A stretch of 64,000 bases of DNA, taken from assembly GCA_049297495.1 (NCBI GenBank), contig JBAQUL010000015.1:128609-192608 (forward strand), given 5' to 3'. Below the pieces are notes generated by a model that saw only the letters and a list, made by a program, of their open reading frames with translations, was not told the origin of the DNA and made no database searches. A program made the translations under genes and the position numbers. Below are positions 9,182 through 47,852 of this stretch, one piece after another (positions within the stretch are counted from its first letter, which is position 1; each line of letters begins with the position of its first letter). The stretch is from Candidatus Moraniibacteriota bacterium (GTDB taxonomy: Bacteria > Patescibacteriota > Minisyncoccia > Moranbacterales > UBA2206).

Positions 9182-10519
9182 TTAATTATAAACAATCATC
9201 TGATCAATTGATACCCCACTATCAACACCCAATTTTCCCACAAGTGATTTTGATGTGCCAAGATAAAGATTTGCTCCAAAATATGGATCATGCACGATAT
9301 AATCTTTACTATCTTTTCCTGTGACAACAACATAATGACCACCGCCACGACTTCGCTTAATATAGACAATTACGGGATTGCCTTTTTTAATTTCCGCATC
9401 AACAGTCGACCACTTAATATTGCCATGAGAACTTGATGATACTAATTTGATACCTGGGGACCAGGTAGCTGGCCACTTAATTAGATCATAGTAAAATATC
9501 TTCTGAGATGCCATTGTTCCCGGATTGATACTTGCTCCTTTTTCGCGAAACACCATTGAGACTGCAGTCACCGCACACCCATAAGATTTCATAAGTGTCT
9601 TTGAGTTTCCGATTTTCTTATCACCCCAACGCGAATCTTTTTGCGAAAAATACCAACTAGTTGATGCAAGATTACTACTAGGTTTGGGGTAGCTACCAAC
9701 ACTCGAACTGACATCTCCGAGATTACTTGCTGCACTAAAATCCAACAACTCTTGTTTTTGTGCTTCAACCCGCGCAAGTAATTTTTTATACTTTTCTTCC
9801 TCGCCCTGAGTTTGCACTAGTAGGTTTGTTTTTTGATTTTCTGTCGCTTGCAAATTTTCCTTTTTATCAATCAACGTCTCTTTCGCTTTATCACTTTCTT
9901 CCTTTTTCTGTATCAAGCTATTTTGGTTATCAACGAGCTTCTGTCTTGTTTGCTTGATTTCTGTCAGCAATCGGGACACCTTATCGCCGGATTGTTCAAT
10001 ATAATCCAATTGATTCATGGCTTCCGAAAATGCTTTACCAGCAAGAACTAGAGGCAAAACGCCCTGCTGATCGTATTCATAATAAGACTGCATGAGCCCT
10101 GCAAGAATTTTTCTTTGAAAATCAACCTTAAATTCCCCCTCCTTAATTTCTTCAGATAAATCATCGATTTGCTGGGCAAGTGTCTGTACTTTTTTTTGAG
10201 TTTCTTGCAATTGCGCCAAGGTCTTGGCTTGTTCATTGTCAATATTATCAAGTTGTCCAGCCAGTGCGTCTTGCTGCTTATTCTTCAGTCTGATCAGATC
10301 TTCATACACTTTCGCCTTTTTCTCAAGACTTTCGCAATCGTCCACGCAGTCTTTTTTACACTTCTTCTTATCGCCATCATCGCTGGGATATTGGGCTACG
10401 CATTTCGACTCACAAGTGTTATCACAAGAACTTCCACTAGCAAACTCTTTTGGCAAAACCAAAAAAATAGAAACGATGAGTAAGAAAAATATTTTTTTAT
10501 TTTTTTTAAATTTTTGCAT
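9182..10519 (-). CDS. Secreted coiled-coil protein with C-terminal papain-like (C39-like) peptidase domain
   Basis: N-terminal signal/TM (KIFFLLIVSIFLVL). A Cys-rich stretch is followed by a long coiled coil rich in Q/K/E. The C-terminus has a GCAVTAVSMV Cys and a GGGHYVVVTG His resembling Peptidase_C39-like cell-wall hydrolases. Confidence 0.45.
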   Translation of the reverse strand: MQKFKKNKKIFFLLIVSIFLVLPKEFASGSSCDNTCESKCVAQYPSDDGDKKKCKKDCVDDCESLEKKAKVYEDLIRLKNKQQDALAGQLDNIDNEQAKTLAQLQETQKKVQTLAQQIDDLSEEIKEGEFKVDFQRKILAGLMQSYYEYDQQGVLPLVLAGKAFSEAMNQLDYIEQSGDKVSRLLTEIKQTRQKLVDNQNSLIQKKEESDKAKETLIDKKENLQATENQKTNLLVQTQGEEEKYKKLLARVEAQKQELLDFSAASNLGDVSSSVGSYPKPSSNLASTSWYFSQKDSRWGDKKIGNSKTLMKSYGCAVTAVSMVFREKGASINPGTMASQKIFYYDLIKWPATWSPGIKLVSSSSHGNIKWSTVDAEIKKGNPVIVYIKRSRGGGHYVVVTGKDSKDYIVHDPYFGANLYLGTSKSLVGKLGVDSGVSIDQMIVYN

Positions 10520-10525
10520 TGTTTT

Positions 10526-12058
10526 TTATCCCATTAAAGAAATCGCCTTCGCAATTCTTTTTTGACTTTCAGTTTTCCCGAGAACCCACGCCACCTCAAA
10601 AGGGGATGGTGATTTTTGCACTCCCGTGAGTGCTGCACGAAGCGGCCAAAGCAACTCTCCCCTCTTCTCCCCTGCCGCCGCGAGTAATTTTTCTTCCAAA
10701 TTTTCCTTCGACCAATCATCTTTGGAAATATTTTCCAAAAGCTCCTGAACTTTTTCTAAGTTTTTTTTCAAATCATCATCAGACATCTCTTTCCAGCGCA
10801 AAAGTGATTTATCATAATTCAAGTCGGTCGCAAAAAAGAATTGATTATTTTCTCCTACATCCGACAATTTAGACAGACGATCAAGCTCAATAGTCAGCAC
10901 TTTTTTTAGAAATTCCGGCGATTTTTTTTCTGCGCCAGCCTGAATAAAAAATTCCTTTTGTTCGAAAAAGAGCAATGCTTTTTCATAAAGTTCATCAATA
11001 GATAACTTTTTAATATACTCAGCATTGATCCAATCAAGTTTTTTCAAATCAAATACGGCACCAGCCTTGTGCACTTTTTCCAACTCAAATCTTTGCACCA
11101 GCTCATCAAGTGAAAATATCTCTTGTGTCTCCCCTGCTCCAGGGTTCCAGCCTAAAAGTGCCACAAAATTAATGATTGCTTCTTTGAGATAACCTTTTTT
11201 AATGTAATCTTCCACTGCCACATCACCTTGGCGTTTGGAAAGTTTAGTCTTATCAGGATTAAGCAAGAGTGGCAAGTGAGCGAATTTGGGCAATTCCCAA
11301 CCGAAAGCTCTATATAGTAGCACGTGCTTAGGAGTGCTGGGGAGCCATTCTTCTCCACGAACGACACAATCAACTTTCATTTCATAGTCATCCACAACGA
11401 CTGCTAAATGATAGGTCGGATATCCATCGGATTTCAACAGTACCTGATCATCAATATTATCGGTATTAAAAGCGATCTTGCCTCTTATAATATCTTCAAA
11501 CTCAATTGTTTCATTTTTAGGAACCTTGAGTCGAATCACATGCGAACAATTAGCTTTTAGATTTTTGTTAATTTCGTCTTCCGTCAAATTGCGCAAGCAA
11601 TACTGATCATATCTCGGCGCAAGTTTATTTGCTGATTGTTCCTCGCGTAATGTCTCAAGTCTTTCTGGTTCACAAAAACAATAATAAGCATAGCCTTTCG
11701 CCACCAGTTCTTCGGCATATTTTTTATATATCTCCAGTCTTTCTGATTGGACGTATGGTCCATAATCTCCGACTTCAAAAATTCCGGGATAACTTTTTGA
11801 TTCGGTCGATTCCATAGCTGCTGATTTTTCCAATTTTGGTCCCTCAGAATATTCAATTCCCGCCCACTCAAGTACTTTTAACAGACTCTCTAGCGCCCCA
11901 CTCACAAAGCGCTTCTTGTCAGTATCTTCGATACGCACAATGAAACCAGCGCCGGTTTTTTTGGCAAATAAATAATTATAAAGTATCGTGCGAAAATTTC
12001 CGATATGCACATATCCGGTCGGTGATGGCGCAATCCTGACGCGATTTTTTTTATCCAT
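10526..12058 (-). CDS. gltX: Glutamyl-tRNA synthetase
   Basis: HIGH motif (PSPTGYVHIGNFRT) and KLSKRQ (KMSKS). Confidence 0.9.
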   Translation of the reverse strand: MDKKNRVRIAPSPTGYVHIGNFRTILYNYLFAKKTGAGFIVRIEDTDKKRFVSGALESLLKVLEWAGIEYSEGPKLEKSAAMESTESKSYPGIFEVGDYGPYVQSERLEIYKKYAEELVAKGYAYYCFCEPERLETLREEQSANKLAPRYDQYCLRNLTEDEINKNLKANCSHVIRLKVPKNETIEFEDIIRGKIAFNTDNIDDQVLLKSDGYPTYHLAVVVDDYEMKVDCVVRGEEWLPSTPKHVLLYRAFGWELPKFAHLPLLLNPDKTKLSKRQGDVAVEDYIKKGYLKEAIINFVALLGWNPGAGETQEIFSLDELVQRFELEKVHKAGAVFDLKKLDWINAEYIKKLSIDELYEKALLFFEQKEFFIQAGAEKKSPEFLKKVLTIELDRLSKLSDVGENNQFFFATDLNYDKSLLRWKEMSDDDLKKNLEKVQELLENISKDDWSKENLEEKLLAAAGEKRGELLWPLRAALTGVQKSPSPFEVAWVLGKTESQKRIAKAISLMG

Positions 12059-31699: not shown

Positions 31700-31810
31700 A
31701 ATATAGAGCTACAAAGACCTGTATTCCGAACTGTCGCCGGACGGCGGCGTGGCTGGGACAACCAGCATAGGAACGTGGTTGGAAATAGCCCCTTTTGGGG
31801 TTATTTTTTA
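31700..31810 (+). ncRNA. Candidate small RNA, promoter-like upstream and intrinsic terminator at 3' end
   Basis: Putative -35 TTGCGC (31676..31681), 17-nt spacer and -10 TAATAT (31699..31704). A GC-rich body (gtcgccggacggcggcgtggctggg...) ends in hairpin gcccc-tttt-ggggt plus a T-run (31786..31810). No ORF on either strand. Confidence 0.3.
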
Positions 31811-32437
31811 TTATCTAAAATTCCATTCGTCCTGAATATATTTTTCAATGATCTTTTTATAAATCACAGAATCGGCTTTATCTTTTTGATATGACCTATG
31901 AATTGCACCTGCAACCATATCCGCCATCTGAATCAAAGCGTCGCTCTTTGAATCAACGAGTTTGCAGTTTTGCAATATCTTTCGATCTTTTCCGTTCAAT
32001 TCTTTTCTAAGATAGGAAATAAAGTTTCTCCTAAATGTGCGATCTCCACTTCCATCGATTCTGATTCTTGCATCCACGATAGTTTCGTTACTGTGCTTTA
32101 GCATCATCTTGATTATATAGCTATAAAAAGAATTTTTGTTACTTTTTAATTCTGGGCTATAAAGCAGATTTTTATCGACTACCACGCATCTTATTCTAAA
32201 CTTATGTTTCTTAATGCATTCTAAAAATTTTACCCTATTTTCATCTTTTGATTTGTGGAATTTAAACTCCACATCATCTCGTTCAAATAACTCTCTTCTT
32301 AATTCTTTTATCGAAATAGCTGTTTTTTCCGCTTCTAGATTGTCATCAAAAATGACCGCACTGATAATGAAAAATCGACTGGATCCTTTATCGAATTTAA
32401 ATCCAGCGCAACCCGAATCATCAATAAAAACTAACAT
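31811..32437 (-). CDS. DUF3800-domain protein
   Basis: N-terminal FIDDSG and C-terminal LIQMADMVAGAI match the DUF3800 (PF12686) termini. Confidence 0.6.
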   Translation of the reverse strand: MLVFIDDSGCAGFKFDKGSSRFFIISAVIFDDNLEAEKTAISIKELRRELFERDDVEFKFHKSKDENRVKFLECIKKHKFRIRCVVVDKNLLYSPELKSNKNSFYSYIIKMMLKHSNETIVDARIRIDGSGDRTFRRNFISYLRKELNGKDRKILQNCKLVDSKSDALIQMADMVAGAIHRSYQKDKADSVIYKKIIEKYIQDEWNFR

Positions 32438-35423: not shown

Positions 35424-36794
35424 CTATTCACCTTCGCCATTTCTCCTGCTGAAACATATCTTACCACCGACAATTTCCACTTTCCTTTCTTCTGCTTTTT
35501 GATAAGACTTAAGCGCTGGGTCAATAACACTCATAAAATCACTCGATTTCTGCAATTCTGGCTCCAAATCAATATTTCTTTTTTTAAGAAATCTTAGCAT
35601 AAGAATAGCATGCGCCCAAGCATCCCGTTCGCATTTTTCATATCCCTTCAATACTTCGCCAAACTTATCGCATTGAGCTACATATTTTTTACCATCATAA
35701 CGATTAAAAACAATGTCGCCCGCCTTCACTCTATTGCTATCATAAATAAAATTATCCCTGTCAAAACTAATTCCCCTATCTCCCAATTGTTTGCGAACAA
35801 ATTGCACATATTTTTCACTCCTTTCTTCACTCAACTCTCCATTTTTTAGCTCTGTCATATTATCCTCCAACAATCCCAATAAAACAACAACGTCCAAATG
35901 AAGCTTCCCAAAATCTCCTCTCTCGTGCTTTCCAATGTATGCTTGCTGCCAACTATGAGCAATTTCGTGGAATAAGGCCAGTATATTTCCCTTCTTTGTT
36001 AAATCGCCATAATAAACTGTTTTTAAATTAAGATTGTAATAAAAGTTGCCGTTTGAACCACTTACTCCCGAATAAATTTTCAAATCTACCGGATAAATCC
36101 TATTAAGAAGAATGTTCTTTTCAGAATCATACTCCTCCTTAATATTGCACATATCTGAAGGGGCTAAAATATTCTCATTAGGAAGGAGTTGTTCGATATC
36201 TAATTTTAACCCGGAATTCCAATCAGAAATAATCAGCTGAGAAGAAATATAGTTATCCTCTTCCCCTAGCTGGTTATGCAACAACTCCTCTATTGTAATC
36301 TTACCATTATCTTTTAAATTTCGATGGTAAGATTCTTGCAACATATAACCGTCTCTTTTCTCCTCGTATACTTCCGAACTAAACCCTCGACTGAAATCGC
36401 GAAACTCTTGCACCTTATTGAGCTTGTTCCCCAATTTCAATCTCTCATTTTCAAAAGCAACAATAGATGGCATCTGATCGATGTGACTATACTCTTTTTC
36501 TGGCTTATGCAGTGATGATGGAATTAATTCTTCGAAATAGCTGCCCGCGCCAATACTGGCAAATATTGAGTTAGTCAAAAGAGCGCCATATTGCTCTAAG
36601 GATTTTTTCATTTCTTCATCAATTTTTCCCTCCTCTATTCCCATCATCTCATAAACACACCTCATCACCGTTGTCCGCATATTAGCATAATACTCTTCCA
36701 TATCCATCTTTCTGGATTCATTTTCCTGTATTGGTGCTTTCTCTGATTGATTGATCATATTAATAATCGGTTTATAATTATTTTTTAAGCGCAT
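35424..36794 (-). CDS. Hypothetical protein with HExxH zinc-metallopeptidase motif
   Basis: 456 aa, single HEIAHSW motif. No other recognisable domain. Confidence 0.4.
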   Translation of the reverse strand: MRLKNNYKPIINMINQSEKAPIQENESRKMDMEEYYANMRTTVMRCVYEMMGIEEGKIDEEMKKSLEQYGALLTNSIFASIGAGSYFEELIPSSLHKPEKEYSHIDQMPSIVAFENERLKLGNKLNKVQEFRDFSRGFSSEVYEEKRDGYMLQESYHRNLKDNGKITIEELLHNQLGEEDNYISSQLIISDWNSGLKLDIEQLLPNENILAPSDMCNIKEEYDSEKNILLNRIYPVDLKIYSGVSGSNGNFYYNLNLKTVYYGDLTKKGNILALFHEIAHSWQQAYIGKHERGDFGKLHLDVVVLLGLLEDNMTELKNGELSEERSEKYVQFVRKQLGDRGISFDRDNFIYDSNRVKAGDIVFNRYDGKKYVAQCDKFGEVLKGYEKCERDAWAHAILMLRFLKKRNIDLEPELQKSSDFMSVIDPALKSYQKAEERKVEIVGGKICFSRRNGEGE

Positions 36795-36840: not shown

Positions 36841-37071
36841 TTATCTACCCAAAGAAAACCAAGAAATTATCACTAAAACTATAGCAGCTACCAGAATGAT
36901 CGCGAGTGTCGATATTTTCAGGGGTTTTGGATTGAATTTTTTGAGAACACGATCTGAGAGGGCTTTCATGATCATTACCATGACAAGCAAAAAGAAGAGA
37001 AAAAGAAAATACTTCATAGTTGTTGGGCTCGAGAACGTTTTCACTATTATTGCAAAAAGGTCTATTTTCAT
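36841..37071 (-). CDS. Small membrane protein
   Basis: 76 aa, two TM helices. Confidence 0.3.
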   Translation of the reverse strand: MKIDLFAIIVKTFSSPTTMKYFLFLFFLLVMVMIMKALSDRVLKKFNPKPLKISTLAIILVAAIVLVIISWFSLGR

Positions 37072-37135: not shown

Positions 37136-39490
37136 TTATTTAAGTTCATACTTCTCACTTGCCTTAGCGTACAAGTTTTTTTGAAATCCAAAAAAGATTT
37201 TTCGAATTTGATCAACATCACCCAATGATTGCTCAGCATTAGCAATTGCATTGTATTTCAAATTTAACAGCATTGGTAATTTTTCCTCATCCAATTCGTC
37301 AACACCATTTTCTTCATATTTTGAAAGCACAAAATTTAAAAAGTTTTTCTGTTCATTGCCGACATTAGCTAGGATTTTTTCTTTTGATTGCTCTACTCTT
37401 TGCACGCGGGAAATCGTTGGTGTGAGAAATGAAATATAGACCAAAACGTCGAACAGATCACTATTTTCCGCGTCAATCATTTTTTGCAATGTTTCCAGCT
37501 CATCTTTGCCATAACCCATTTCTGCGATTTTATCCAAAAATACTTTGCGCGATGCAGGGTTTGACCAAATCACGCGAAGTTCATCTTCAGTTTTGAAAAA
37601 TTCCGGCATGGCGCCAAAGAGATTATTCATAAATTCCTCAATTGAAATCGGCTTACCATCTGCGCTCCAAAAAGAAGTCGAGATCATATGTTGAATCTCG
37701 CGCTCTTTTCCATCACGCAATTTTATTCTTAGCTTTTTTTGTGGCTCAATTCTGGCATCACGAAGTATTTCAGCGCCAGTTTCTTTGGATGCCATTTTGT
37801 AGCCCTCGCTCTGTTTTTCAGCTTTAATTTCCTCAATTGGTTCTCCGTCCCACTCTTTGTCAGCAAAGTGATGATAGGCATCGACAAAATCCAAAATCGT
37901 AAAAAATTCTTTACCCTCAAAAAGTCTCGTTCCCCTGCCAATGATTTGCTTAAATTCAATCATGGAATTGACCGGGCGCATTAGCACAATATTTCTGATA
38001 TTTCGTGCGTCCACTCCGGTGGAAAGCTTTTGCGAAGTGGTGAGAATTGTCGGAATGGTTTTTTCGTTATCCTGAAACTCGCGCAAGAATTGCTCGCCGC
38101 GAAATCCGTCATTGGCCGTCACTCGCACGCAATAATTCGGATCCTTGCTTTCCTTCATCTGATTGACCAAATCACGCACCGCCAGCGCATGATCTTGGTT
38201 GGCGCAAAAAATGATTGTTTTTTCGTTTTGATTAATTTCGGAAAGCACAACACGAACTCGCTTGGCTTCGCGTTCTTTGATAATTATGATTTTATTAAAA
38301 TCTGGCTCTTCATAGATTTTCCCTTCTTCCACTTCACCTTCAATGATTTGATCGTCTGAAGTGTAAACATAATCATCGAGAGTTGTCTTGATCCGCTTAA
38401 CCTTGAAGGGCGTGAGAAATCCATCATTTACGCCTTCTTTCAAAGAATAAATATACACCGGCTCGCCAAAATATTGATAGGTATCAACATTGTCTTTGCG
38501 TTTTGGCGTGGCAGTGAGACCGAGTTGCACCGCTGGTGAAAAATATTCTAAAATCCCCCGCCAATTACTTTCGTCATTCGCACCACCACGATGACATTCA
38601 TCAATGATAATAAAATCAAAAAAATCTGCTGGATATTCTCCAAAATATGGCGTACCATTTTGGCCGCCTTGCAGTGAGCTAGCCGAACCTGTCATAAAAG
38701 TTTGAAAAATCGTGAAATAGACCGAGCCACTCATCGGAACTCCGCCTTTTTTTCTAATATCAAGCGGATTGATCCGCACCAGTGCATCTTCGGAAAAAGC
38801 GGAAAAAGCATTAAAAGCTTGATCGGCTAAAATATTTCTGTCAGCCAAAAACAAAATCCGCGGCCGACGCTCCCCGTCCCGCTTCAGGTTCCATCTAGTT
38901 TGAAAAAGCTTCCAGGCAATTTGAAAAGCAATGAATGTTTTTCCTGTTCCAGTCGCCAGTGTCAAAAGAATGCGCTTTTTTTCTTCTGCAATTGCATCAA
39001 GCGCTCGCTCCACGGCTAGCTCCTGATAGTATCTTGGCTTCTTGCCAGTTCCGCCATCTTCAAACGGAACAGCATTGAATTTTTCTTTCCATTCATTTTG
39101 ATCTGAGAAAGTTTTGTGCCAAAGTTCGTCTGGCGTGGGAAAATCAGAAATATTTCCTTCTTGCCCATTTTTCATCGAGATCTGATAGATTTCTTTTCCA
39201 TTGGTCGCAAAGGTATACTCGATCTGCAATTTTTTGGCATAGGCCTTGGCCTGTGCCACCCCTTCCGTTGTCTCCAAATTTTCCGCCTTCGCTTCAATCA
39301 CGCCAATCTTACGATTACGATAAACTAAAATATAGTCGGCAATTTCCGGCTTGGCGCGCAGTCCACCGACTTGAATCCGACCTTCTGTAATGCGAAATTC
39401 ACGCAGAACTTTTGAGCCTTCCACTTCGCCCCAACCACTAGCCTTGAGCTTTGGGTCAATATATTCCGCCCTGGTTTCTGATTCGTTCAT
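37136..39490 (-). CDS. hsdR: Type I restriction enzyme R subunit (HsdR, EcoEI-like)
   Basis: N-terminal nuclease region SETRAEYIDPKLKASGW...VIEAK. SF2 helicase motifs LATGTGKT, DECHRG, GLTATP and QIIGRGTR. Long C-terminal EcoEI_R_C-like tail. Confidence 0.9.
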   Translation of the reverse strand: MNESETRAEYIDPKLKASGWGEVEGSKVLREFRITEGRIQVGGLRAKPEIADYILVYRNRKIGVIEAKAENLETTEGVAQAKAYAKKLQIEYTFATNGKEIYQISMKNGQEGNISDFPTPDELWHKTFSDQNEWKEKFNAVPFEDGGTGKKPRYYQELAVERALDAIAEEKKRILLTLATGTGKTFIAFQIAWKLFQTRWNLKRDGERRPRILFLADRNILADQAFNAFSAFSEDALVRINPLDIRKKGGVPMSGSVYFTIFQTFMTGSASSLQGGQNGTPYFGEYPADFFDFIIIDECHRGGANDESNWRGILEYFSPAVQLGLTATPKRKDNVDTYQYFGEPVYIYSLKEGVNDGFLTPFKVKRIKTTLDDYVYTSDDQIIEGEVEEGKIYEEPDFNKIIIIKEREAKRVRVVLSEINQNEKTIIFCANQDHALAVRDLVNQMKESKDPNYCVRVTANDGFRGEQFLREFQDNEKTIPTILTTSQKLSTGVDARNIRNIVLMRPVNSMIEFKQIIGRGTRLFEGKEFFTILDFVDAYHHFADKEWDGEPIEEIKAEKQSEGYKMASKETGAEILRDARIEPQKKLRIKLRDGKEREIQHMISTSFWSADGKPISIEEFMNNLFGAMPEFFKTEDELRVIWSNPASRKVFLDKIAEMGYGKDELETLQKMIDAENSDLFDVLVYISFLTPTISRVQRVEQSKEKILANVGNEQKNFLNFVLSKYEENGVDELDEEKLPMLLNLKYNAIANAEQSLGDVDQIRKIFFGFQKNLYAKASEKYELK

Positions 39491-39492
39491 AA

Positions 39493-39681
39493 TTATTTTC
39501 TACCGTAACGTTTTTCGATTTCTCCTTTTGCCAGCTCCCTTCCTGACCATCGACCAAAGCGCGCCCCGCAATCATTACAATCAATTTCACTGACCCCATC
39601 GTAACGCTCTGGACTGTTGTAGTCATATTCGACCATAACTATGTTTTTGCTTCCGCATTTTTTGCATTTTTCATTGTCCAT
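39493..39681 (-). CDS. Small zinc-ribbon protein
   Basis: 62 aa with CKKCGS...CNDCGA (CxxC...CxxC). Start is 4 nt after the fic stop. Confidence 0.4.
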   Translation of the reverse strand: MDNEKCKKCGSKNIVMVEYDYNSPERYDGVSEIDCNDCGARFGRWSGRELAKGEIEKRYGRK

Positions 39682-39684
39682 TTT

Positions 39685-40878
39685 TTATTTTTTAATATTT
39701 AAAGACACAGGAATAAAACTATTTTTTTCCAAGATATAAACAACTCCTCGTAACAGATAGTTGTTTGCAAATCCTACAGTATATATTCGTCCATTCTCCT
39801 TAAGAGGAACGAGCATATGTTTGTCCTTTAGTCGTTTTAAAATACGTGATCGTTGAACAGATGATTCTTGACCAATAATTTTTTCCAAATCAGAAGATTT
39901 GATACACATATCCCTGCTTTTCACCAACGTTGAAAGGATTTCATGTTCGCGTTTTGTAATATGCTCACGCTCAAGGGCATGTAGAAGCACAGGCAGTAAA
40001 ATAGTATTGGTAATGTAATTTAGATTTAATAATTTATCTATTTTCTCTATTTCTACGCGTAACCCTTCAAGCACATATAGGCACCACTGCAATGTCTTTT
40101 CTTTTTCTCCACTATCAGCTAACGTGAGCATTTCATAATATCTCTCCCTGTCCATGCAAAATATTGCTGTTGGATTCAATATGCGCCCACTTTTTACTTG
40201 AAATCCTTGTTTAATCAAAAGGGCGTATGTAAACATTCTAACCAATCTACCATTTCCATTATCAAACGGATGGATCCAAGCCATTCGATGATGTGACATT
40301 GCAATTGCCAGTAAATGATATTGCTCATCAAGAGGTTGATTGATAAAATTTATCAATTCTTCAAAGTACTCTGGAACTTTTATTGCTTCAGGCGGAATAT
40401 GATTTGATCGTTTGATCGTAACATTTATCGGGCGTAGCATTCCGGGATACTTTGATCCTTCACCCTCGGGAGGTGGCATAAGTCCATCCACTATAATCTT
40501 ATGGATTTCCGATATCAAGGCACGATCAAATTTAGTATTGTTTTTTATATTCTTCTCAATAAAGTCAATTGCTTTTTCAATATTATATATTTCTTTTAAC
40601 CCCTCGTCTTTTCCTTTTTTGGATGGATCTTCAATAATTTTTTCGACAAATTCTGCCAAGGTTGTATTATTACCTTCAATTCGCGCGGAGCCAAGACTTT
40701 CTAGCATTTGAAATATGTCTTTTAACTGAAAGAAAATATATGGAGGAACTGGCCCTCCGAGCTTTTTTACACGTAGCTTTTCAAGCTCGATAATAGTATT
40801 AGCAAGTTTACTGCCCCATTTGGGGTCATAGAGCTCGAGCGGAATATCCTTAAATGTTGAGTTATTTACACTTTTCAT
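39685..40878 (-). CDS. fic: Fic/DOC family protein (putative AMPylase) in RM operon
   Basis: Canonical HPFDNGNGRLVRM (HxFx(D/E)GNGRxxR) and N-terminal inhibitory motif SARIEGN ((S/T)xxxE(G/N)). Confidence 0.85.
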   Translation of the reverse strand: MKSVNNSTFKDIPLELYDPKWGSKLANTIIELEKLRVKKLGGPVPPYIFFQLKDIFQMLESLGSARIEGNNTTLAEFVEKIIEDPSKKGKDEGLKEIYNIEKAIDFIEKNIKNNTKFDRALISEIHKIIVDGLMPPPEGEGSKYPGMLRPINVTIKRSNHIPPEAIKVPEYFEELINFINQPLDEQYHLLAIAMSHHRMAWIHPFDNGNGRLVRMFTYALLIKQGFQVKSGRILNPTAIFCMDRERYYEMLTLADSGEKEKTLQWCLYVLEGLRVEIEKIDKLLNLNYITNTILLPVLLHALEREHITKREHEILSTLVKSRDMCIKSSDLEKIIGQESSVQRSRILKRLKDKHMLVPLKENGRIYTVGFANNYLLRGVVYILEKNSFIPVSLNIKK

Positions 40879-40990
40879 TATGATTATTTAACATTATATG
40901 CCTAATTTTATCTCATATAAGGGATTTTGTCAAGTATCTATTTTTTAGTTAATTAACATTATCCTGGATCCTGATTTAACAAGCCCTCTC

Positions 40991-42160
40991 TCATAACTCC
41001 CCGTTAAAAGCCTTCTTCAAAACGGACTTTTTCAACTCCTCCAAATCAGCCAGTTTTTGGCGATAATTCGCTTCCAGTTTTTTAGTCTCCGCCGAAAGCG
41101 CATCAAGTTTTTTGACGATGGATTTTTGGTCGACTAATGGTGGGGCTGGAATTGGATAGTTTTTTAGCTTCTGCCCGTTGATATTCGCCTGATTTACACT
41201 TGAGATAACAACCGAATTTCCATGTTCCTTTGCCTCATTACTATTCAGAAAATAATTCAAATAATCAGCATCCAATAATTTTTCCTTTCTATGGATTCGG
41301 ATTAGATAGCCAGCAAAAATCGCAGGCATTTCATTTTTGTAGATTGCTGTTTTCCCTACCAACTCTGGACTATTTGTACGATTAAACAATACGTCGTTAT
41401 ATTTCAATAGATATTTTTCTATTTCCTGTTTATCGTTAGAGTACTTAAGATCATCCCAGTTCAGCTTGCCATTTTGAATATTGCCCATTCGCAATACTGG
41501 CACTCGCCCTGCCTTTTTGGATTTTGAAGAAGATCCATATTCGACTCTTTCGCACAACTCTCCCAGCAATTTTACGCCCCATTTTTTCCTAGAATTATCC
41601 AAAATATTTCGCAAAGACAAATCAAAAAGCTCTTTGGAATTTTGCAGATTTTTTTCCGCATTGGCTTTCGCCTTCGCAATCCCTTCAAAAACCTCATCCA
41701 AAATTTTGACGATGCGGCGTTGTTCGGGGAGAGGTGGAAAAGATATTTCTAAATTTTCAAATTCTTCTTTGTTTAGGTGAGGTATAGCAGATCCTGTTCT
41801 TGATTTTGTAAAGTTTTCTCTGTGCGTTATTAAAAAATGCAAAAGATATTTCGGATTCAATAAATCTTTCTGATATTTAACAATCCCCATCGTTGAAGCT
41901 AATGCTCCCTCCAATCCTGTAAACATTTCGCCAGAATTTGATCCATCCATGATAATGATAATATCCTCTTTTTTTACCCAAACAGATGATGGACACTTTT
42001 CTGAAGCAAATTTTGGCTCTTCTGTTTTGCGAACAACTTTTGCAGTCAAATATGGCTTATTACTTTTCGATACAAAAACAGTAGGCTTTTTGCCCTTCAC
42101 TAAATCACAAACCTCTCTGAGTTTTTTTGTTTGCCATGTCATATTTATTTTTCGAAACAA
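40991..42160 (-). CDS. hsdS: Type I restriction-modification specificity subunit (HsdS)
   Basis: Two target-recognition halves separated by conserved PPLPEQRRIVKILDEVFE, and a C-terminal conserved helix (LEELKKSVLKKAF). Confidence 0.85.
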   Translation of the reverse strand: MFRKINMTWQTKKLREVCDLVKGKKPTVFVSKSNKPYLTAKVVRKTEEPKFASEKCPSSVWVKKEDIIIIMDGSNSGEMFTGLEGALASTMGIVKYQKDLLNPKYLLHFLITHRENFTKSRTGSAIPHLNKEEFENLEISFPPLPEQRRIVKILDEVFEGIAKAKANAEKNLQNSKELFDLSLRNILDNSRKKWGVKLLGELCERVEYGSSSKSKKAGRVPVLRMGNIQNGKLNWDDLKYSNDKQEIEKYLLKYNDVLFNRTNSPELVGKTAIYKNEMPAIFAGYLIRIHRKEKLLDADYLNYFLNSNEAKEHGNSVVISSVNQANINGQKLKNYPIPAPPLVDQKSIVKKLDALSAETKKLEANYRQKLADLEELKKSVLKKAFNGEL

Positions 42161-42552
42161 GATTTAATTTTTTTCCAAAAAATCTTAAGATTAATGCCTA
42201 TACCATAAAACTCTGGGGAAAGTTTTAAGATTTCCTCCCTGTCTTCTTTTATCATGGAGAAATTAGGAAAATTAGACTCAACTTCGTCTATACCTGCTAC
42301 AGTTATTTGATCTTGTACATTTGTAATAACTTTTAGATATTCTTTGTCCTCTAAATATTTGATGGTACTAAGTAACTCGTTATTATTGAAATCTTTTAAA
42401 TTAAGCTTTTCTGCCACTGCTGGGCGCATAACTAAATTCAATATATCACCATCAGAAATGTCATAATGCAGTTGCAATACTTTTTTCCTAAATTCTGTTT
42501 TTGTTTGCCAGTTAGTTTTCATATGGTACTTGTGAATATTCAATCTTCCCAT
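42145..42552 (-). CDS. Hypothetical protein (cassette gene 4, inside RM operon)
   Basis: 135 aa. Overlaps hsdS by 16 nt and the upstream gene by 41 nt. Only a weak Rx6H pattern (RKKVLQLH). Confidence 0.4.
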   Translation of the reverse strand: MGRLNIHKYHMKTNWQTKTEFRKKVLQLHYDISDGDILNLVMRPAVAEKLNLKDFNNNELLSTIKYLEDKEYLKVITNVQDQITVAGIDEVESNFPNFSMIKEDREEILKLSPEFYGIGINLKIFWKKIKSCFEK

Positions 42553-43171
42553 TTATTTGCAATAGACGAGCATCCCTAACCTTAAGATTTTCTCCCTCAC
42601 AATCAAATAGTTTCATATTCGCCTGCCAAACAGACCGACAAAATATATTATTTTGATCATTTGTATAAGTTAAAACAACACTGATAGGAATTTCCACGTG
42701 CATCTTATTATATAATTCATCAAACTTACCTTCAAGTCTTAATTTAATTACAAACGGATCATCATTTAATGTGAGATAGAGTGGCGCTTTATTATGCCGC
42801 GCTTCGTAAATAGAAATCCCCATAGATTTCGGCTGAGAAATATTGAAAGCGACACCACGTCCAGAGTTGAAGCACTCAAATTCAATACTAAAGATCACTT
42901 CGTAAGGTTTTTCAATAATTTTTCCCGAATCTATAGACATATAGTTGTTGTCTTCTTGTTTATTTTTAACACAAAGAAAAACATCGACAGGTCTCACTAT
43001 TATACTTGGCGCCGTGCTCATCGCTGAGTCAAATTCAGATTTTTTCAACACTTTGCGAGAAATCCATAGAGAAGCAATGGCAGCCGTGCCCAATATAGAG
43101 TTAAGCACTAGGCTAAATACATCAAATAGATCGTGTTTTATTTGCACATTAATAAATGGATGCCAACTCAT
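42512..43171 (-). CDS. Hypothetical membrane-anchored protein (cassette gene 3)
   Basis: 219 aa, single N-terminal TM helix (FSLVLNSILGTAAIASLWI). No known motif. Confidence 0.4.
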   Translation of the reverse strand: MSWHPFINVQIKHDLFDVFSLVLNSILGTAAIASLWISRKVLKKSEFDSAMSTAPSIIVRPVDVFLCVKNKQEDNNYMSIDSGKIIEKPYEVIFSIEFECFNSGRGVAFNISQPKSMGISIYEARHNKAPLYLTLNDDPFVIKLRLEGKFDELYNKMHVEIPISVVLTYTNDQNNIFCRSVWQANMKLFDCEGENLKVRDARLLQINGKIEYSQVPYEN

Positions 43172-43207
43172 AATTGTTTTTTTGTAAATTATTCTTTTTT
43201 ATAGAAC

Positions 43208-44140
43208 CTACATTAGAGGTTGTTGATACTGTTTTATTTCGACAATGCGAAGCTTAGGTTTTTGATAAAGCGACTTTCTTTCAACAATCGCCTCGACAGC
43301 AACATCCTCTTCGTAAAAATCATCCAGATCTTTGGTAGTCTTGCCTTCTGGTGGATAAGCTATGAGATCCCGGTCTCTTCTTGAAAATCCATGAACTTGT
43401 AATTTTAGCGAATCACCTTTGCTGCATTGCATAGCTACAATTTTTCCTGTAAACAAATACTTCTTTCCGTCTTCATAATTCGGAAGTATTTTTTCTTCGT
43501 CACTAAGATAATTATCAAAATTATTCTCATCGACCAACGATTCATTTTTAAAATCTGGATAATTACTCACTGATATAGATTTAACTTTTTCATCCACAAA
43601 AGGTTTTAATGCCTTTTTGAACTTATGGTTTTTAATCATCTTGTGAGCCGCAATAGCATAATCCTTTTTTAGCTCATCTAGATCAGGATATCTTTTCTGT
43701 CCTTGTGCTTTTCCAAAAAAATAAGCCACAAACCCAGTCACCATATTTGATAAAACTTCTTGATCGAATGGATTTCTGGCAAAATAATCATTTATATTCC
43801 TATGTCCATTTACTAATAAATCTGATGTAAATCCAAAGAAATTCTTAGCTTCTAAAAACTGCTGCGGGCTAACAATTTCCAGAAAATTCAATAAATCCGA
43901 AATTTTTTCAAAAGGTACATGTTCTTTATTGCTTATAACAAAAATAATGATATCAACTATCAAAGAGCCTTCTCTAGTTTTACTGACACCTACTTTTATA
44001 TCTGCATCAATTTTTGTAGTTTTGAAAATCTCCCTTATGACCAAATCAAATCCAATGATCGATTCTCCGAGAGTTACTAGGTCAATTTCAGAGTCATCAA
44101 TCCCTAATCCTTTGTACTTTATAAATAGATTTGCTTTCAT
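43208..44140 (-). CDS. Hypothetical protein (cassette gene 2)
   Basis: 310 aa, no recognisable motif. Confidence 0.4.
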   Translation of the reverse strand: MKANLFIKYKGLGIDDSEIDLVTLGESIIGFDLVIREIFKTTKIDADIKVGVSKTREGSLIVDIIIFVISNKEHVPFEKISDLLNFLEIVSPQQFLEAKNFFGFTSDLLVNGHRNINDYFARNPFDQEVLSNMVTGFVAYFFGKAQGQKRYPDLDELKKDYAIAAHKMIKNHKFKKALKPFVDEKVKSISVSNYPDFKNESLVDENNFDNYLSDEEKILPNYEDGKKYLFTGKIVAMQCSKGDSLKLQVHGFSRRDRDLIAYPPEGKTTKDLDDFYEEDVAVEAIVERKSLYQKPKLRIVEIKQYQQPLM

Positions 44141-44208
44141 ATTCTTATGATTAAATTTGTGATGCAGCCTTTGAAATAAAAGGCTGCATCACCGCTGGTT
44201 TATTTTTT

Positions 44209-44847
44209 CTACGCTTTCGGAAAAAGCAGGCCGTAGACTTCCAGATAATTCAGACATTCCATAAAGACCTCTTCTTTGATTCCCCAAGTTTTTTGAGACA
44301 AAACAGATTCTTTGATTAGCTCACCGCAACTATCCAAATAGGGAGGAACGATGACCTCGATCATTGATCGGGAAACCCACACCACCTTGGTATCGCAATC
44401 TTTAGTACTCTGCAGTTCGCGAAATAAATTTAAATCATTCCTGGAATACAGAAGACCTGAGTTTCTAAATTTAACCTCAACTAATTCATAACGATACCCT
44501 TGATGAGTTATGATGAGAAAATCGGGTGATTTCCTAAAGCCTACCATAGGAACCTCCAAATAACCCTGTTTAGTTCGTAAGAAAATCTCACTTTCATTGG
44601 CATGTTTTGATTGTCTCCACTCAACTCCAAAGAAATAAAGCTCAACCCCTGATCTTCTAAACATCTGCTCAATAATAGCTTCGGCAATCCGACCCTTTAT
44701 GTCTTTATTCATCCCCTCCTTCCAGCCATCAGAATCCCAAAGAGCCATTTTTTCAGCAACTTTATTTTTGACATCATCTATCGTGCCAATAATCCAATTT
44801 TCCGCCATCTTCTCACCTCCTTTTTCTTCATTTTGTAGAATGTACAA
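44209..44847 (-). CDS. Predicted PD-(D/E)XK restriction-endonuclease-fold nuclease (cassette gene 1)
   Basis: Helix with E (GRIAEAIIEQMF), then SPDFLIITHQGYRYELVEVKFR giving PD-x13-E-V-K, the classic PD-(D/E)xK arrangement. Immediately downstream of hsdM. Confidence 0.5.
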   Translation of the reverse strand: MYILQNEEKGGEKMAENWIIGTIDDVKNKVAEKMALWDSDGWKEGMNKDIKGRIAEAIIEQMFRRSGVELYFFGVEWRQSKHANESEIFLRTKQGYLEVPMVGFRKSPDFLIITHQGYRYELVEVKFRNSGLLYSRNDLNLFRELQSTKDCDTKVVWVSRSMIEVIVPPYLDSCGELIKESVLSQKTWGIKEEVFMECLNYLEVYGLLFPKA

Positions 44848-44874
44848 TCCTCCCTAAAGCAGCTCTCTATTATA

Positions 44875-46323
44875 TCAAAATCCGCCCAATTTATCAAGAA
44901 TTTTTCGACTCTCCTCATCCAACCTTTTCATCTCCTCCAAAATCACCTTCGGCTCCCGCAAAGCAACTTCTCCGCCTTTGCTCGGATTTTTGACTGACAA
45001 ATCAAATGTTTTTTGGTCAATTTTTGAAACGTCTATGCTCCACGAATTTTCAGAGTTGGCTTTTGTTTTTTGCAATTCCACAAATTCTTCCAAATCTTTT
45101 TCACTGAGCGAATTGGTCTTGCCCAAATTACGATCAAGATTCAATTGATAGAACCAGACTTTTTTCGTGGATTCACCTTTGGTGAAAAACAGCACCACCG
45201 TTTTCACGCCCGCACCTTGAAAAGCGCCGCCCGGCAAATCAAGAACCGTGTGCAGATTGCAATTTTCCAAAAGCAATTTTCGCAAACTAACCGAAGCATT
45301 GTCGGTGTTCGAGAGAAATGTATTTTTAATGACGATGCCTGCTCGCCCGCCGGCTTTGAAAATTTTGATGAAATGTTGCAAAAAAAGAAAGGCCGTTTCG
45401 CCGGTTTTGATGGGAAAGTTTTGTTGAATCTCGCGACCGATGCCAGCGCCAAACGGCGGATTGGCTAAAATAACTTGATAGCGATCTTTTTCTTGAATGT
45501 CATTGATATTTTCCGCTAGCGTGTTCATGTGGCGAATATTCGGCGCCTCAATGCCATGAAGAATCATATTCATAATCCCGATCACATAGGCCAGGGATTT
45601 GATTTCTTTGCCAAAAAAAGTTTTGTTTTGCAACGTGGCCATTTGAGCGGAAGAAAGCTTGGCTTGATTTTGGGTGAGAAAATTGTAGGCTTCGACCAAA
45701 AATCCCGCACTGCCACAGGCGCCGTCATAGATTGTTTCGCCGATTTTGGGCGCAACGACTTTGACAATTGTTCTGATGAGCGGTCTGGGCGTGTAATACT
45801 CTCCGCCGTTTCGACCGGCGTTTCCCATCTTGGCAATTTTCGCTTCATAGAGATGGGAGAGTTCGTGCTTTTCTTCATAGAGCCGAAAATGCATTTCATC
45901 CACCACATTCAAAATTTCCCGCAGTTTATACCCGCTGGAAATTTTATTTTTGAGTTCCGAAAAAATTTCCCCGATTTTATATTCAATCGTGTTTGGTTCT
46001 TCGGCTTTGAACTTTTTGAGATAGGGAAAAAGTTTATGATCAACAAAATCCTTCAAATCATCTCCATCTTGAGCTTTTTCATAGTCCAACTTCCCATCAG
46101 CATCTTTCGGACAAGCCCAAGTGTTCCAGCGAAATTCAGGAGCAAGAATATATTGATATTTTTTTCCCGCCAAGGCGTTTTCTGTTTTTTTGGTTTCCTC
46201 AAGATCGTCCAAATATTTCAAAAACAAAATCCAGGAAGTCTGCTCGACATAATCCAGCTCGGTCGCCGAACCTGAATCGGTACGTAAAATATTATCAATA
46301 TTTTTAAATGCTTGTTCAAACAT
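44875..46323 (-). CDS. hsdM: Type I restriction-modification N6-adenine methyltransferase (HsdM)
   Basis: HsdM N-terminal domain (TSWILFLKYL), SAM-binding FDGACGSAGFL, and catalytic NPPFG. Confidence 0.9.
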   Translation of the reverse strand: MFEQAFKNIDNILRTDSGSATELDYVEQTSWILFLKYLDDLEETKKTENALAGKKYQYILAPEFRWNTWACPKDADGKLDYEKAQDGDDLKDFVDHKLFPYLKKFKAEEPNTIEYKIGEIFSELKNKISSGYKLREILNVVDEMHFRLYEEKHELSHLYEAKIAKMGNAGRNGGEYYTPRPLIRTIVKVVAPKIGETIYDGACGSAGFLVEAYNFLTQNQAKLSSAQMATLQNKTFFGKEIKSLAYVIGIMNMILHGIEAPNIRHMNTLAENINDIQEKDRYQVILANPPFGAGIGREIQQNFPIKTGETAFLFLQHFIKIFKAGGRAGIVIKNTFLSNTDNASVSLRKLLLENCNLHTVLDLPGGAFQGAGVKTVVLFFTKGESTKKVWFYQLNLDRNLGKTNSLSEKDLEEFVELQKTKANSENSWSIDVSKIDQKTFDLSVKNPSKGGEVALREPKVILEEMKRLDEESRKILDKLGGF

Positions 46324-46536: not shown

Positions 46537-47211
46537 TTATTTCATTAATCCCTTTTCCTGAAAACTCGCAAAACCATTTTTGGTAACAATAATATGATCC
46601 AAAACCTCAATTCCCAAGATCTTCCCCGCCTCCTTGAGGCGCCTGGTCACTTCCAAATCATCTTCGGACGGTTCGGCGCTGCCGGAAGGATGATTGTGCG
46701 CGAGGATGACAGAAGCCGCTAGCTGATCAATGGCGGACTTGAAAACTTCGCGAGGATGAATGAGGCTGGCGTTCAGCGTGCCAATCGAGACTGTTTCTTT
46801 GTGAATCAATTGATTTCTAGCGTTGAAATAAAGCACGACAAAATGCTCTTTTTTGACATTGCGCAATTCTTGCAACTGCGCCACGGCGTCTTTGGCAGAA
46901 ATAATAGTCGGCAAATTATTGTCCTCTACTTCCAAGGCGCGCTTGGTGAGTTCAAAAGCAGCGAGAAGCAGACAGGCCTTTCCCGGACCAATGCCTTTGA
47001 TTTTTGCTAAGTCTTTGAAATTAAGTGCGAGCAAATTTTTGGTGGGATTTTTTCGCAATACTTCACGAGAAACTTTCATAACATCTTTGCCTTTCGTTCC
47101 TGTGCGCAGAAGAATCGCCATCAATTCACTATCACGCAGATTTTCCGCGCCCTTTTCTATTAGTTTTTCTCTGGGCTGTTTGTGTTTTGGAAGATTTTTT
47201 ATTTTTGACAT
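46537..47211 (-). CDS. radC: RadC-like JAB-domain protein
   Basis: HNHPSGSAEPSEDD JAMM motif and N-terminal HhH region. Confidence 0.85.
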   Translation of the reverse strand: MSKIKNLPKHKQPREKLIEKGAENLRDSELMAILLRTGTKGKDVMKVSREVLRKNPTKNLLALNFKDLAKIKGIGPGKACLLLAAFELTKRALEVEDNNLPTIISAKDAVAQLQELRNVKKEHFVVLYFNARNQLIHKETVSIGTLNASLIHPREVFKSAIDQLAASVILAHNHPSGSAEPSEDDLEVTRRLKEAGKILGIEVLDHIIVTKNGFASFQEKGLMK

Positions 47212-47318
47212 AATTATTTTGTCTTTCTCAATATATCATTCCCCTGCTTGGTACGCTGCGAGACTGGATTCCCGCCGGAGTTTATACTCGTGAAACGGGT
47301 GCGGGAATGACACGGAGA

Positions 47319-47338
47319 GTGCGTAATTAATTACGCAC
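47319..47338. repeat. Perfect 20-bp palindrome gtgcgtaattaattacgcac
   Basis: Exact reverse-complement symmetry, located 4 nt after the stop of the 47343..47852 gene. Additional inverted repeats lie in 47215..47318. Confidence 0.5.
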
Positions 47339-47342
47339 ATCC

Positions 47343-47852
47343 TTAATCTTTAATAAACCCTCCCAACTCCTCAAAAACCCCATCTGTAAAATCATCCGGC
47401 TTGAATTTAAAAATTGCCATCGCGTTTTTTTGACAATAATCTAGCTCGGGAAGATTTTTGGTCTTAGTGTAATGTTTAAAACTATCGAGCGTATCGGCCG
47501 CCCGGATGATGAGTGCGTCACGTCCTGCCTCCGCCGCGCGATTGGCCAATTCTTCGATTCTTTCCTCTAAATTTTCAATTGAGCGGTTTTTGGTGTTGGC
47601 TTTCACCAATTGCAAAACGGTTTCCCCGAACTCCGTCCGCACGAGCTCTTCTGTGACGCCACTCCACTCCAGCGCGTCATGCAGAAGTCCCGCGATGACT
47701 GCGTCGCGGGAATAGTTATTTTCATAGAGATAAACTCCCACACGAACAACATGGAACAAGACCGGTTTTTTCGCTCCTTCATGTGAAACCGGCAGACGCG
47801 CAACAAGCATCCGCAGGGCCTTTTCAAATTCAATGTCGAGTGATTCTGGCAT
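47343..47852 (-). CDS. HD-domain protein (RelA/SpoT hydrolase-like)
   Basis: PVLFHVVRVGVYL...AVIAGLLHDALE H...HD pattern. Locally higher GC. Confidence 0.55.
   Translation of the reverse strand: MPESLDIEFEKALRMLVARLPVSHEGAKKPVLFHVVRVGVYLYENNYSRDAVIAGLLHDALEWSGVTEELVRTEFGETVLQLVKANTKNRSIENLEERIEELANRAAEAGRDALIIRAADTLDSFKHYTKTKNLPELDYCQKNAMAIFKFKPDDFTDGVFEELGGFIKD

Follow-up and report, generated by a model that had tools for sequence, protein, structure and literature searches.

A probable mosaic of passenger genes in separate slots of a type IB restriction-modification operon from a Candidatus Moraniibacteriota bacterium

The type IB restriction-modification (RM) operon described here lies on contig JBAQUL010000015.1 (assembly GCA_049297495.1) of a Candidatus Moraniibacteriota bacterium, within the 64,000-nucleotide stretch of DNA that we analysed and call the window. 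Between its hsdM and hsdS genes lies a 2.7-kb stretch with four genes, called A, B, C and D in the order from hsdM to hsdS; they encode a putative small nuclease, a protein with a predicted OB-fold, a predicted membrane-anchored protein and the product of a short open reading frame (ORF). The original prediction took the four for one undescribed nuclease and membrane-protein system of defence or abortive infection, co-transcribed with the RM genes. Our comparison of related loci gives a different picture: the stretch is likely to be a mosaic of at least three independently acquired passenger modules, which occupy separate variable slots of a complete type IB operon.

We propose the following arrangement. 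A first slot, from the end of hsdM to the start of C, would carry A and B. C itself would have reached one and the same position in type I operons belonging to at least four divergent lineages. A second slot, at the 5′ end of hsdS, would have taken up D through an in-frame insertion of 374 bp, bordered by a 13-bp duplication. Each module would be an autonomous defence or RM-accessory gene that is retained by riding with the RM operon (guilt-by-embedding), and the cargo may be exchanged by recombination anchored on the conserved 3′ end of hsdM and the conserved 5′ end of hsdS.

Independence of the four genes and the insertion boundaries

The co-occurrence of the four genes was examined in 52 loci (L numbers below) drawn from the contexts of B and C homologues, by tblastn, by hidden Markov models of A, B and C, and by phmmer for D. 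A, B, C and D stand together only in the source contigs L001-L004, which are identical to the window. An exact-sequence look-up also locates the window in a metagenome-assembled genome of Candidatus Moraniibacteriota, GCA_049303595.1, on contig JBAQNG010000024.1. Conservation of the four-gene neighbourhood was looked for outside the source genome and not found: B occurs in seven other contexts, about 20 further ones have C with none of A, B and D, and the sister operon L026 keeps C only. None of the four has relatives in IMG/VR, and there is no support for a phage origin.

The insertion boundaries are seen in the comparison with L026, the closest related operon, whose HsdM and HsdR are 87% and 83% identical to those of the window. 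Unrelated genes there replace A and B, C is kept and D is lacking. By blastn, homology covers hsdM at 46323-44888, ending 13 nt before the hsdM stop codon, and again C with the old hsdS start at 43175-42498; from 42136 onward the identity is 94%, and the parts in common are the conserved regions only of hsdS, plus hsdR. No homology to L026 was found for A and B (44887-43176), for the body of D (42497-42137), or for the fic gene and the zinc-ribbon ORF that follow hsdS. The hsdS gene of L026 begins MKTNWQTKKLGEV; in the window, MKTNWQTK opens D, and hsdS restarts with MTWQTKKLREV. The 13-bp sequence TGGCAAACAAAAA is present once in L026 (4179-4191) and twice in the window (Table 1). The single versus doubled repeat, together with the gap in homology, indicates that D is a separate 374-bp in-frame insertion into the 5′ end of hsdS.

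The D-specific insert of 361 nt has 29% G+C and stays open for 116 codons; no open stretch of that length arose in 5000 dinucleotide-preserving shuffles. D has no significant family match and none among phage, plasmid, IMG/VR or PDB sequences; more specifically, the helix-turn-helix (HTH) domain of RM controllers (C-proteins) and similar regulators was looked for, and D matches no HTH family in Pfam or NCBIfam, and no PDB sequence with E < 0.25. A winged-helix-like pattern was seen in D by eye.

Borrowed hsdS codons are found in other operons as well: the proteins encoded between C and hsdS in L036 (184 and 284 amino acids) and in L039 (183 amino acids) begin with the HsdS N-terminal peptide. 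The inserts there (L036 3566-4958, L039 4724-5275) start with MQNNWPTKKLGE..., MNSINNWPTK... and MNCHWPTKKLGK...; the 184-amino-acid protein of L036 and the 183-amino-acid protein of L039 are 75% identical, and the HsdM proteins of the same operons 32%. The variable region of the operon thus has defined slots with precise junctions, and the recurrent overlap of C with hsdS and the borrowed hsdS codons suggest a specific route of cargo exchange.

Further cargo is found beyond hsdS. The slot between hsdS and hsdR in L026 holds genes for a 229-amino-acid HTH protein and a 130-amino-acid protein, and the fic and zinc-ribbon genes of the window constitute a third variable slot because L026 carries these other genes there. 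Short fragments of the hsdS C-terminal region (55-57% identity to the resident hsdS) lie downstream of a Zeta-toxin gene following hsdS in L022 (10910-11026) and L040 (9807-9929), which suggests that cargo at the 3′ end of hsdS is also bracketed by a duplicated hsdS end; the window has no extra hsdS end fragments of this kind.

The transcription signals bear on whether the genes are expressed as one unit. A sigma-70-like pattern precedes A, and a perfect inverted repeat lies between A and B (Table 1). This hairpin has no U-tract on the minus (coding) strand; a terminator, a processing site and a cassette boundary are candidate roles. It is unique to this locus, and a repeated attC- or REP-like element was rejected for that reason. 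Co-transcription with the RM genes was part of the original prediction. The genes are indeed on the same strand; however, the promoter-like site before A, the hairpin and gene overlaps smaller than had been claimed count against it. The site and the hairpin, as pattern matches only, weaken simple co-transcription.

The four genes share one strand, are tightly packed, form a unique set and include both a putative nuclease and a membrane protein, as would suit a single undescribed defence or abortive-infection system expressed with the RM genes. We nevertheless regard this as very improbable: co-occurrence is not conserved in the loci compared, L026 keeps C alone, D came in by a separate insertion that has a duplication of its own, and the promoter-like site and the strong hairpin isolate A. 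The locus does not provide the new four-gene system first proposed.

Several points weigh against the mosaic that we favour. The defence role of the modules is argued from their context alone. The contexts compared are those of B and C homologues, and A and B may form one unit, or A may work with another partner. In this one genome B and C, encoded on one strand with 36 nt between them, could still cooperate. A functional link with HsdS, and not a mere preference of insertion, could underlie the conserved overlap between C and the start of hsdS. As to the transcription signals, promoter-like sites in the region, which are pattern matches only, are no more numerous than expected from shuffled sequence; promoters of the candidate phyla radiation (CPR) are poorly known.

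Proteins A and B

The PD-x13-ExK motif that had been predicted in A is real, and the E...PD...ExK signature is conserved across 30 remote homologues. In an exhaustive HMMER search, A has 36 relatives of 160-190 amino acids; a word-seeded search of 5.8 billion proteins found A itself only. Among 31 sequences (A and 30 relatives), E43, G61, D96 and E111 are invariant (numbering of the 199-residue protein), and K38, G39, A42, E63, P95, V112 and K113 are at least 90% conserved. By these residues, A carries the PD-(D/E)XK catalytic signature. It would be a small Mg-dependent PD-(D/E)XK endonuclease that cuts DNA and acts autonomously.

Profile matches place A near, and not within, described families. 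A scores 17.1-17.3 bits against the Pfam VRR_NUC gathering threshold of 23.8; five of the 31 family sequences match VRR_NUC weakly (best E 0.002), and five match TnsA_N (best E 7.8e-5). PDB profile matches to 4qbn and 2eo0 are weak (E about 0.06). Compared with VRR-NUC and Hjc-type minimal nucleases, A appears alike in the order and spacing of the catalytic residues (E...PD...ExK) and in its small size, a likeness taken from sequence alone; unlike them, it scores below the family thresholds.

B has 38 homologue clusters with many invariant positions. Its predicted structure comprises an alpha/beta domain (residues ~1-70, DUF7946/PDC-S42-like), a helical middle and an OB-fold (~227-304); the C-terminal part is predicted to be a five-stranded closed beta-barrel, superposable on known OB-folds. 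Residues 2-68 align to positions 3-70 of 302 in the PDC-S42 profile and 3-70 of 183 in DUF7946. B is not a full-length, above-threshold member of either family (for DUF7946, 22.4 bits versus a cut-off of 27), and within the B family 8 of 36 sequences match PDC-S42 and 13 of 36 match DUF7946 at E <= 0.01. Judging by these alignments, B shares its N-terminal domain with PDC-S42/DUF7946 and is not a family member. The link to PDC-S42, a single-gene PADLOC defence candidate, is a distant one. The original view that the four proteins show no motif of a described system beyond the nuclease fold stands for A, C and D, which match none; it is slightly off for B, whose first 70 residues weakly match PDC-S42, DUF7946 and NCBIfam LAPAL_fam.

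The contexts of B number eight, and RM or methyltransferase genes adjoin it in six of them. In L011, B is the sole gene between the hsdM and hsdS of a different type I operon; in L009, it comes directly behind a Type ISP enzyme; and in L007, it belongs to a defence island that also holds a type IIG methyltransferase, SMODS-SLATT and PDC-S19. Elsewhere it follows a weakly Eco57I-like methyltransferase gene and a 323-amino-acid ORF (L050), adjoins an MvaI/BcnI gene and a C5 methyltransferase gene (L052) or SocA/Bro/Fic genes (L051), or lies downstream of ftsK (L005). These contexts indicate autonomous single-gene behaviour with a preference for RM neighbourhoods. The PDC-S19/DUF3644 gene of L007 (7015-8004, 6e-108) is directly before B.

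A search of the plasmid collection gave no relative of B. In BFVD, B retrieved only low-TM full-length matches to uncharacterised phage proteins and generic OB-fold matches, and PDB profile searches of B and C gave only chance-level matches. On the predicted structure, the OB-fold of B most likely binds single-stranded nucleic acid, and B may sense or bind the nucleic acid of phages.

Some or all of the four genes might instead be selfish or decaying passengers with no part in defence, such as addiction modules or recombination remnants, with D perhaps a by-product ORF of a rearrangement at the 5′ end of hsdS. The rarity of close relatives of A in the word-seeded search fits this idea, as do the borrowed hsdS codons at the start of D, the lack of a D homologue in the collections searched, and the Zeta toxin, Fic and HTH pairs that occupy neighbouring slots in related operons. 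We consider it quite unlikely, however: purifying selection clearly acts on B and C across phyla, no catalytic residue of A has been lost, and the frame of D is far longer than chance allows in DNA of 29% G+C.

Protein C and the start of hsdS

The one N-terminal transmembrane (TM) helix attributed to C was confirmed as a hydrophobic helix at residues ~15-37. By charge, the topology is predicted to be N-out/C-in, which would place a predicted beta-sandwich in the cytoplasm. C has 36 homologue clusters with many invariant positions.

C lies in the hsdM-hsdS gap of 11 distinct operons (the window, L013, L015/40, L018/22/28, L025, L026, L034, L035, L036, L038 and L039), which span at least four divergent HsdM lineages. 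It directly abuts hsdS in nine of the 11; in L036 and L039 it is separated from hsdS by other genes, as it is by D in the window. The stop of C overlaps the start of hsdS in the same way in most operons, with ...Y-x-x-stop over ATG-x-x-x-TGG. By contrast, the genes between hsdM and C vary: there may be none, an SduA (Shedu) gene, PIN_12 with a 195-amino-acid protein, a 475-amino-acid protein, proteins of 354 and 198 amino acids, a type II methyltransferase gene and a DndB/DpdB-like one together, or Hypoth_Ymh (HEPN-type), among others. The hsdM-hsdS interval had been proposed as a hot spot for defence cargo, and the Shedu, PIN_12, Hypoth_Ymh and methyltransferase plus DndB/DpdB-like genes of these related operons bear this out. 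PrrC, which was cited in support of that proposal, lies in EcoprrI between hsdS and hsdR and not between hsdM and hsdS. In L036, between hsdM and C (2777-2935), a 53-residue N-terminal SduA remnant is 75% identical to the SduA of L020, which indicates that C was formerly preceded there by a Shedu gene, since deleted. In L013, a PDC-M36A gene (9311-10789, 2e-48) directly follows hsdS.

C is also found outside type I loci: after SduA (L020), after HEPN_Swt1 (L042), and in L044 after an HNH gene and a 194-amino-acid ORF, adjoining a putative methyltransferase gene identified by eye. It occurs alone in Kaiserbacteria, and in L023, L029 and L030 it stands alone beside an IS200-like gene. Across nine operons, the identity of C does not follow that of HsdM (Spearman 0.13, p 0.46). 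Between L038 and L039, C is 87% identical and HsdM 32%; between the window and L026, HsdM is 87% identical and C 61%. Considering that C does not track HsdM and occurs outside type I loci, it is best described as mobile and as strongly favouring the start of hsdS. A vertically inherited RM subunit is disfavoured, as the identity of C is independent of that of HsdM.

C would act at the inner face of the membrane and be translated together with HsdS. A bolder proposal, possible rather than probable, is that C represents a class of mobile genes that is new, whose products are anchored in the membrane and serve in defence or as RM accessories. Seen here mainly in CPR and other uncultivated bacteria, such genes would home to the start codon of hsdS in type I operons that are unrelated, and be co-translated with HsdS. 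C may tether or modulate the restriction complex at the membrane, or couple membrane events at the entry of phage DNA to an upstream nuclease; the conserved first codons of hsdS would then be the recombination anchor by which cargo such as D and the genes of L036 and L039 is spliced in frame with the hsdS start.

Two other roles for C have to be weighed against that of an independent passenger. First, C, possibly with D, may be an accessory of the type I enzyme, namely a membrane tether or modulator made in a fixed ratio with HsdS, which would bring the methylase/restriction complex to the membrane, the site of entry of foreign DNA; A and B would then be unrelated cargo. Such a role agrees with the position of the C stop codon, which in most of the 11 operons, over at least four HsdM lineages, overlaps the hsdS start or lies against it, and the predicted N-out/C-in topology with a cytoplasmic beta-sandwich would provide a typical protein-binding module. 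Indeed, the type I enzymes of E. coli are reported to be membrane-associated, and the identity of C correlates weakly with that of HsdS (Spearman 0.34, p 0.045). However, C is found with no type I genes nearby in L020, L023, L029, L030, L042 and L044, it moves between operons independently of hsdM, and most type I operons have no C. An accessory role therefore seems rather unlikely.

Second, C may be the constant partner in a two-gene module whose upstream nuclease effector is swappable; here, A and/or B would act with C, as a membrane sensor or regulator combined with a nuclease or a nucleic-acid binder. A nuclease-type gene is often immediately upstream of C, a few nucleotides apart (SduA in L018 and L020, with the remnant in L036; HEPN_Swt1 in L042; Hypoth_Ymh in L038), or two genes upstream (PIN_12 in L015, the HNH gene in L044), and this pattern is seen both inside and outside RM operons. 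The ~195-amino-acid genes upstream of C in L015, L026, L042 and L044 were also considered as a conserved partner and rejected, being mutually unrelated. A two-gene module is unlikely in our judgement. Shedu works as a single gene and needs no partner (PMC10441436). C comes straight after hsdM in L013 and, in L023, after a housekeeping-type gene; several of the upstream genes encode no nuclease (a DndB-like protein, TM proteins, unknowns); B occurs without C in its seven other contexts; and, in any case, no cargo is commoner in RM operons than nuclease genes. We thus return to the separate passenger modules as the reading that we prefer.

Known systems and the surrounding operon

Cargo embedded in RM operons is a known phenomenon, here filled with uncharacterised genes. 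Most genes embedded in type I RM, BREX and DISARM loci are defence genes, and 145 untested PDC candidates were derived in this way (Payne et al., bioRxiv 10.1101/2024.01.29.577857). The present locus resembles that guilt-by-embedding pattern in its same-strand genes nested in a complete type I system, in cargo that mixes known systems with unknowns, in the weak match of the B N-terminus to PDC-S42, and in the PDC-S19 and PDC-M36A genes of related loci. It differs in that no PADLOC, Pfam, NCBIfam or PHROG model gives a significant match to A, C or D, and in its CPR host, a group barely sampled in RefSeq-based screens.

Two known kinds of RM cargo invite comparison. PrrC is the classic RM-embedded guardian (EcoSal review PMC12707154). 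Like PrrC and RloC, the genes studied here are accessory genes nested in, and co-inherited with, a type I operon, and a back-up that acts when RM is inhibited is a plausible model; unlike them, A-D have no ABC-ATPase or anticodon-nuclease domain, and PADLOC, Pfam and NCBIfam give no PrrC/RloC match. As to Shedu, 602 of its genes lie inside RM systems (PMC10441436). A and Shedu are alike as PD-(D/E)XK nucleases carried as RM-embedded cargo, and SduA lies immediately upstream of C in L018 and L020; however, A is half the size, has no sensor N-terminal domain, and shows weak affinity to VRR-NUC, TnsA-N and Hjc-type nucleases instead. Pfam and PADLOC find no SduA_C/DUF4263 match in A-D, and find it in the neighbours of C in L018 and L020.

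Within the libraries and literature searched, three uncharacterised gene families in a poorly sampled phylum are new, as are a C-hsdS junction that stays fixed in divergent operons and cargo genes whose first codons are borrowed from hsdS; no description of the junction or of the borrowed starts was found in that literature. The locus yields three clonable candidates, namely the putative nuclease A, the predicted OB-fold protein B and C, a predicted membrane-anchored beta-sandwich with no family-library match. Bacteria of the CPR (Patescibacteria) seldom carry CRISPR in their tiny genomes and seem to depend heavily on RM. Considering this reliance, riders of RM operons are likely to be a large part of CPR immunity.

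The operon is complete and lies on one strand. Profile matches agree with the neighbours originally named (hsdM, hsdS, fic, the 62-amino-acid zinc ribbon and hsdR), and the four minus-strand ORFs were found where predicted, at 44209-44847, 43208-44140, 42512-43171 and 42145-42552. HsdR scores 828 bits against the cut-off of 550 on the NCBIfam equivalog NF046051, with ResIII, Helicase_C and EcoEI_R_C domains present; since it passes this EcoAI/FtnUII equivalog, the system is of type IB (EcoAI-like). In agreement, HsdM (N6_Mtase, HsdM_N) and an HsdS with two target-recognition domains are encoded on the same strand. Methylase_S matches HsdS in two stretches, and PADLOC Specificity_I matches it at full length (residues 7-389 of 389, 3.5e-77).

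The gene overlaps turned out smaller than first claimed. C and D overlap by 11 nt (claimed, 41 nt), and between D and hsdS there is a 2-nt gap (claimed, a 16-nt overlap). The larger figures arose because the longest ORFs had been taken; the source gene calls and the sequence favour other starts, namely ATG 42522 for D (125 amino acids) and ATG 42142 for hsdS (383 amino acids). A starts at ATG 44808 with GGAGG 8 nt upstream, and the Logan gene calls also give 199 amino acids.

Table 1. Features of the operon and of its variable slots, in window coordinates
Feature	Position	Strand	Remarks
hsdM, 482-amino-acid type I methyltransferase	44875..46323	-	Pfam N6_Mtase 1e-63, HsdM_N, PADLOC MTase_I 1e-157; left anchor
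Sigma-70-like promoter pattern TTGATA-17-TGnTATAAT	44869..44897	-	Consensus scan, 11 of 12 matches; overlaps hsdM end, ~60 nt upstream of the ATG of A
A, putative minimal PD-(D/E)XK nuclease, 199 amino acids	44209..44808	-	212-amino-acid version with TTG start extends to 44847
Perfect 14-bp inverted repeat, 6-nt loop, between A and B	44159..44192	.	RNA fold -24.2 kcal/mol
B, 310-amino-acid stand-alone protein	43208..44140	-	Predicted N-terminal alpha/beta domain, helical middle, C-terminal OB-fold
C, predicted membrane-anchored protein, 219 amino acids	42512..43171	-	TM ~15-37, predicted cytoplasmic beta-sandwich
D, 125-amino-acid ORF	42145..42522	-	First 8 codons MKTNWQTK are the ancestral hsdS start; remainder is the 361-nt insert
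13-bp direct repeat TGGCAAACAAAAA, copy 1	42498..42510	-	Codons W-Q-T-K of ancestral hsdS start, now D start
13-bp direct repeat TGGCAAACAAAAA, copy 2	42124..42136	-	Inside present hsdS start MTWQTKKL
hsdS, 383 amino acids from ATG 42142, two target-recognition domains	40991..42142	-	Methylase_S 4e-40; right anchor
Fic (SoFic-like, 397 amino acids) and 62-amino-acid zinc-ribbon ORF	39493..40878	-	Third variable slot, hsdS/hsdR
hsdR, 784 amino acids, EcoAI/FtnUII family	37136..39490	-	NCBIfam NF046051, EcoEI_R_C domain

In the third slot, the Fic protein matches PADLOC SoFic at 2e-41, and a promoter-like near-consensus site (40905-40933) lies just upstream of its gene. The zinc-ribbon ORF (CxxC) has a weak Lar-like match (E 6e-4), and its end abuts the start of hsdR.

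Outside the operon, the genes directly upstream of hsdM (46537-47852, minus strand) are a RadC-like one (UPF0758_N and RadC) and an HD_4 gene, in the same order in the source contig. Just downstream of hsdR, a 456-amino-acid ORF (35424-36794, minus strand) has no family match and contains LFHEIAHSW, a zincin-like HExxH motif by eye; it is preceded by a hydrophobic ORF of 76 amino acids (36841-37071). Further away, an Rfam DUF3800-IX RNA motif (31716-31784, plus strand; 55 bits against a gathering score of 36.8) adjoins a 208-amino-acid ORF (31811-32437, minus strand).

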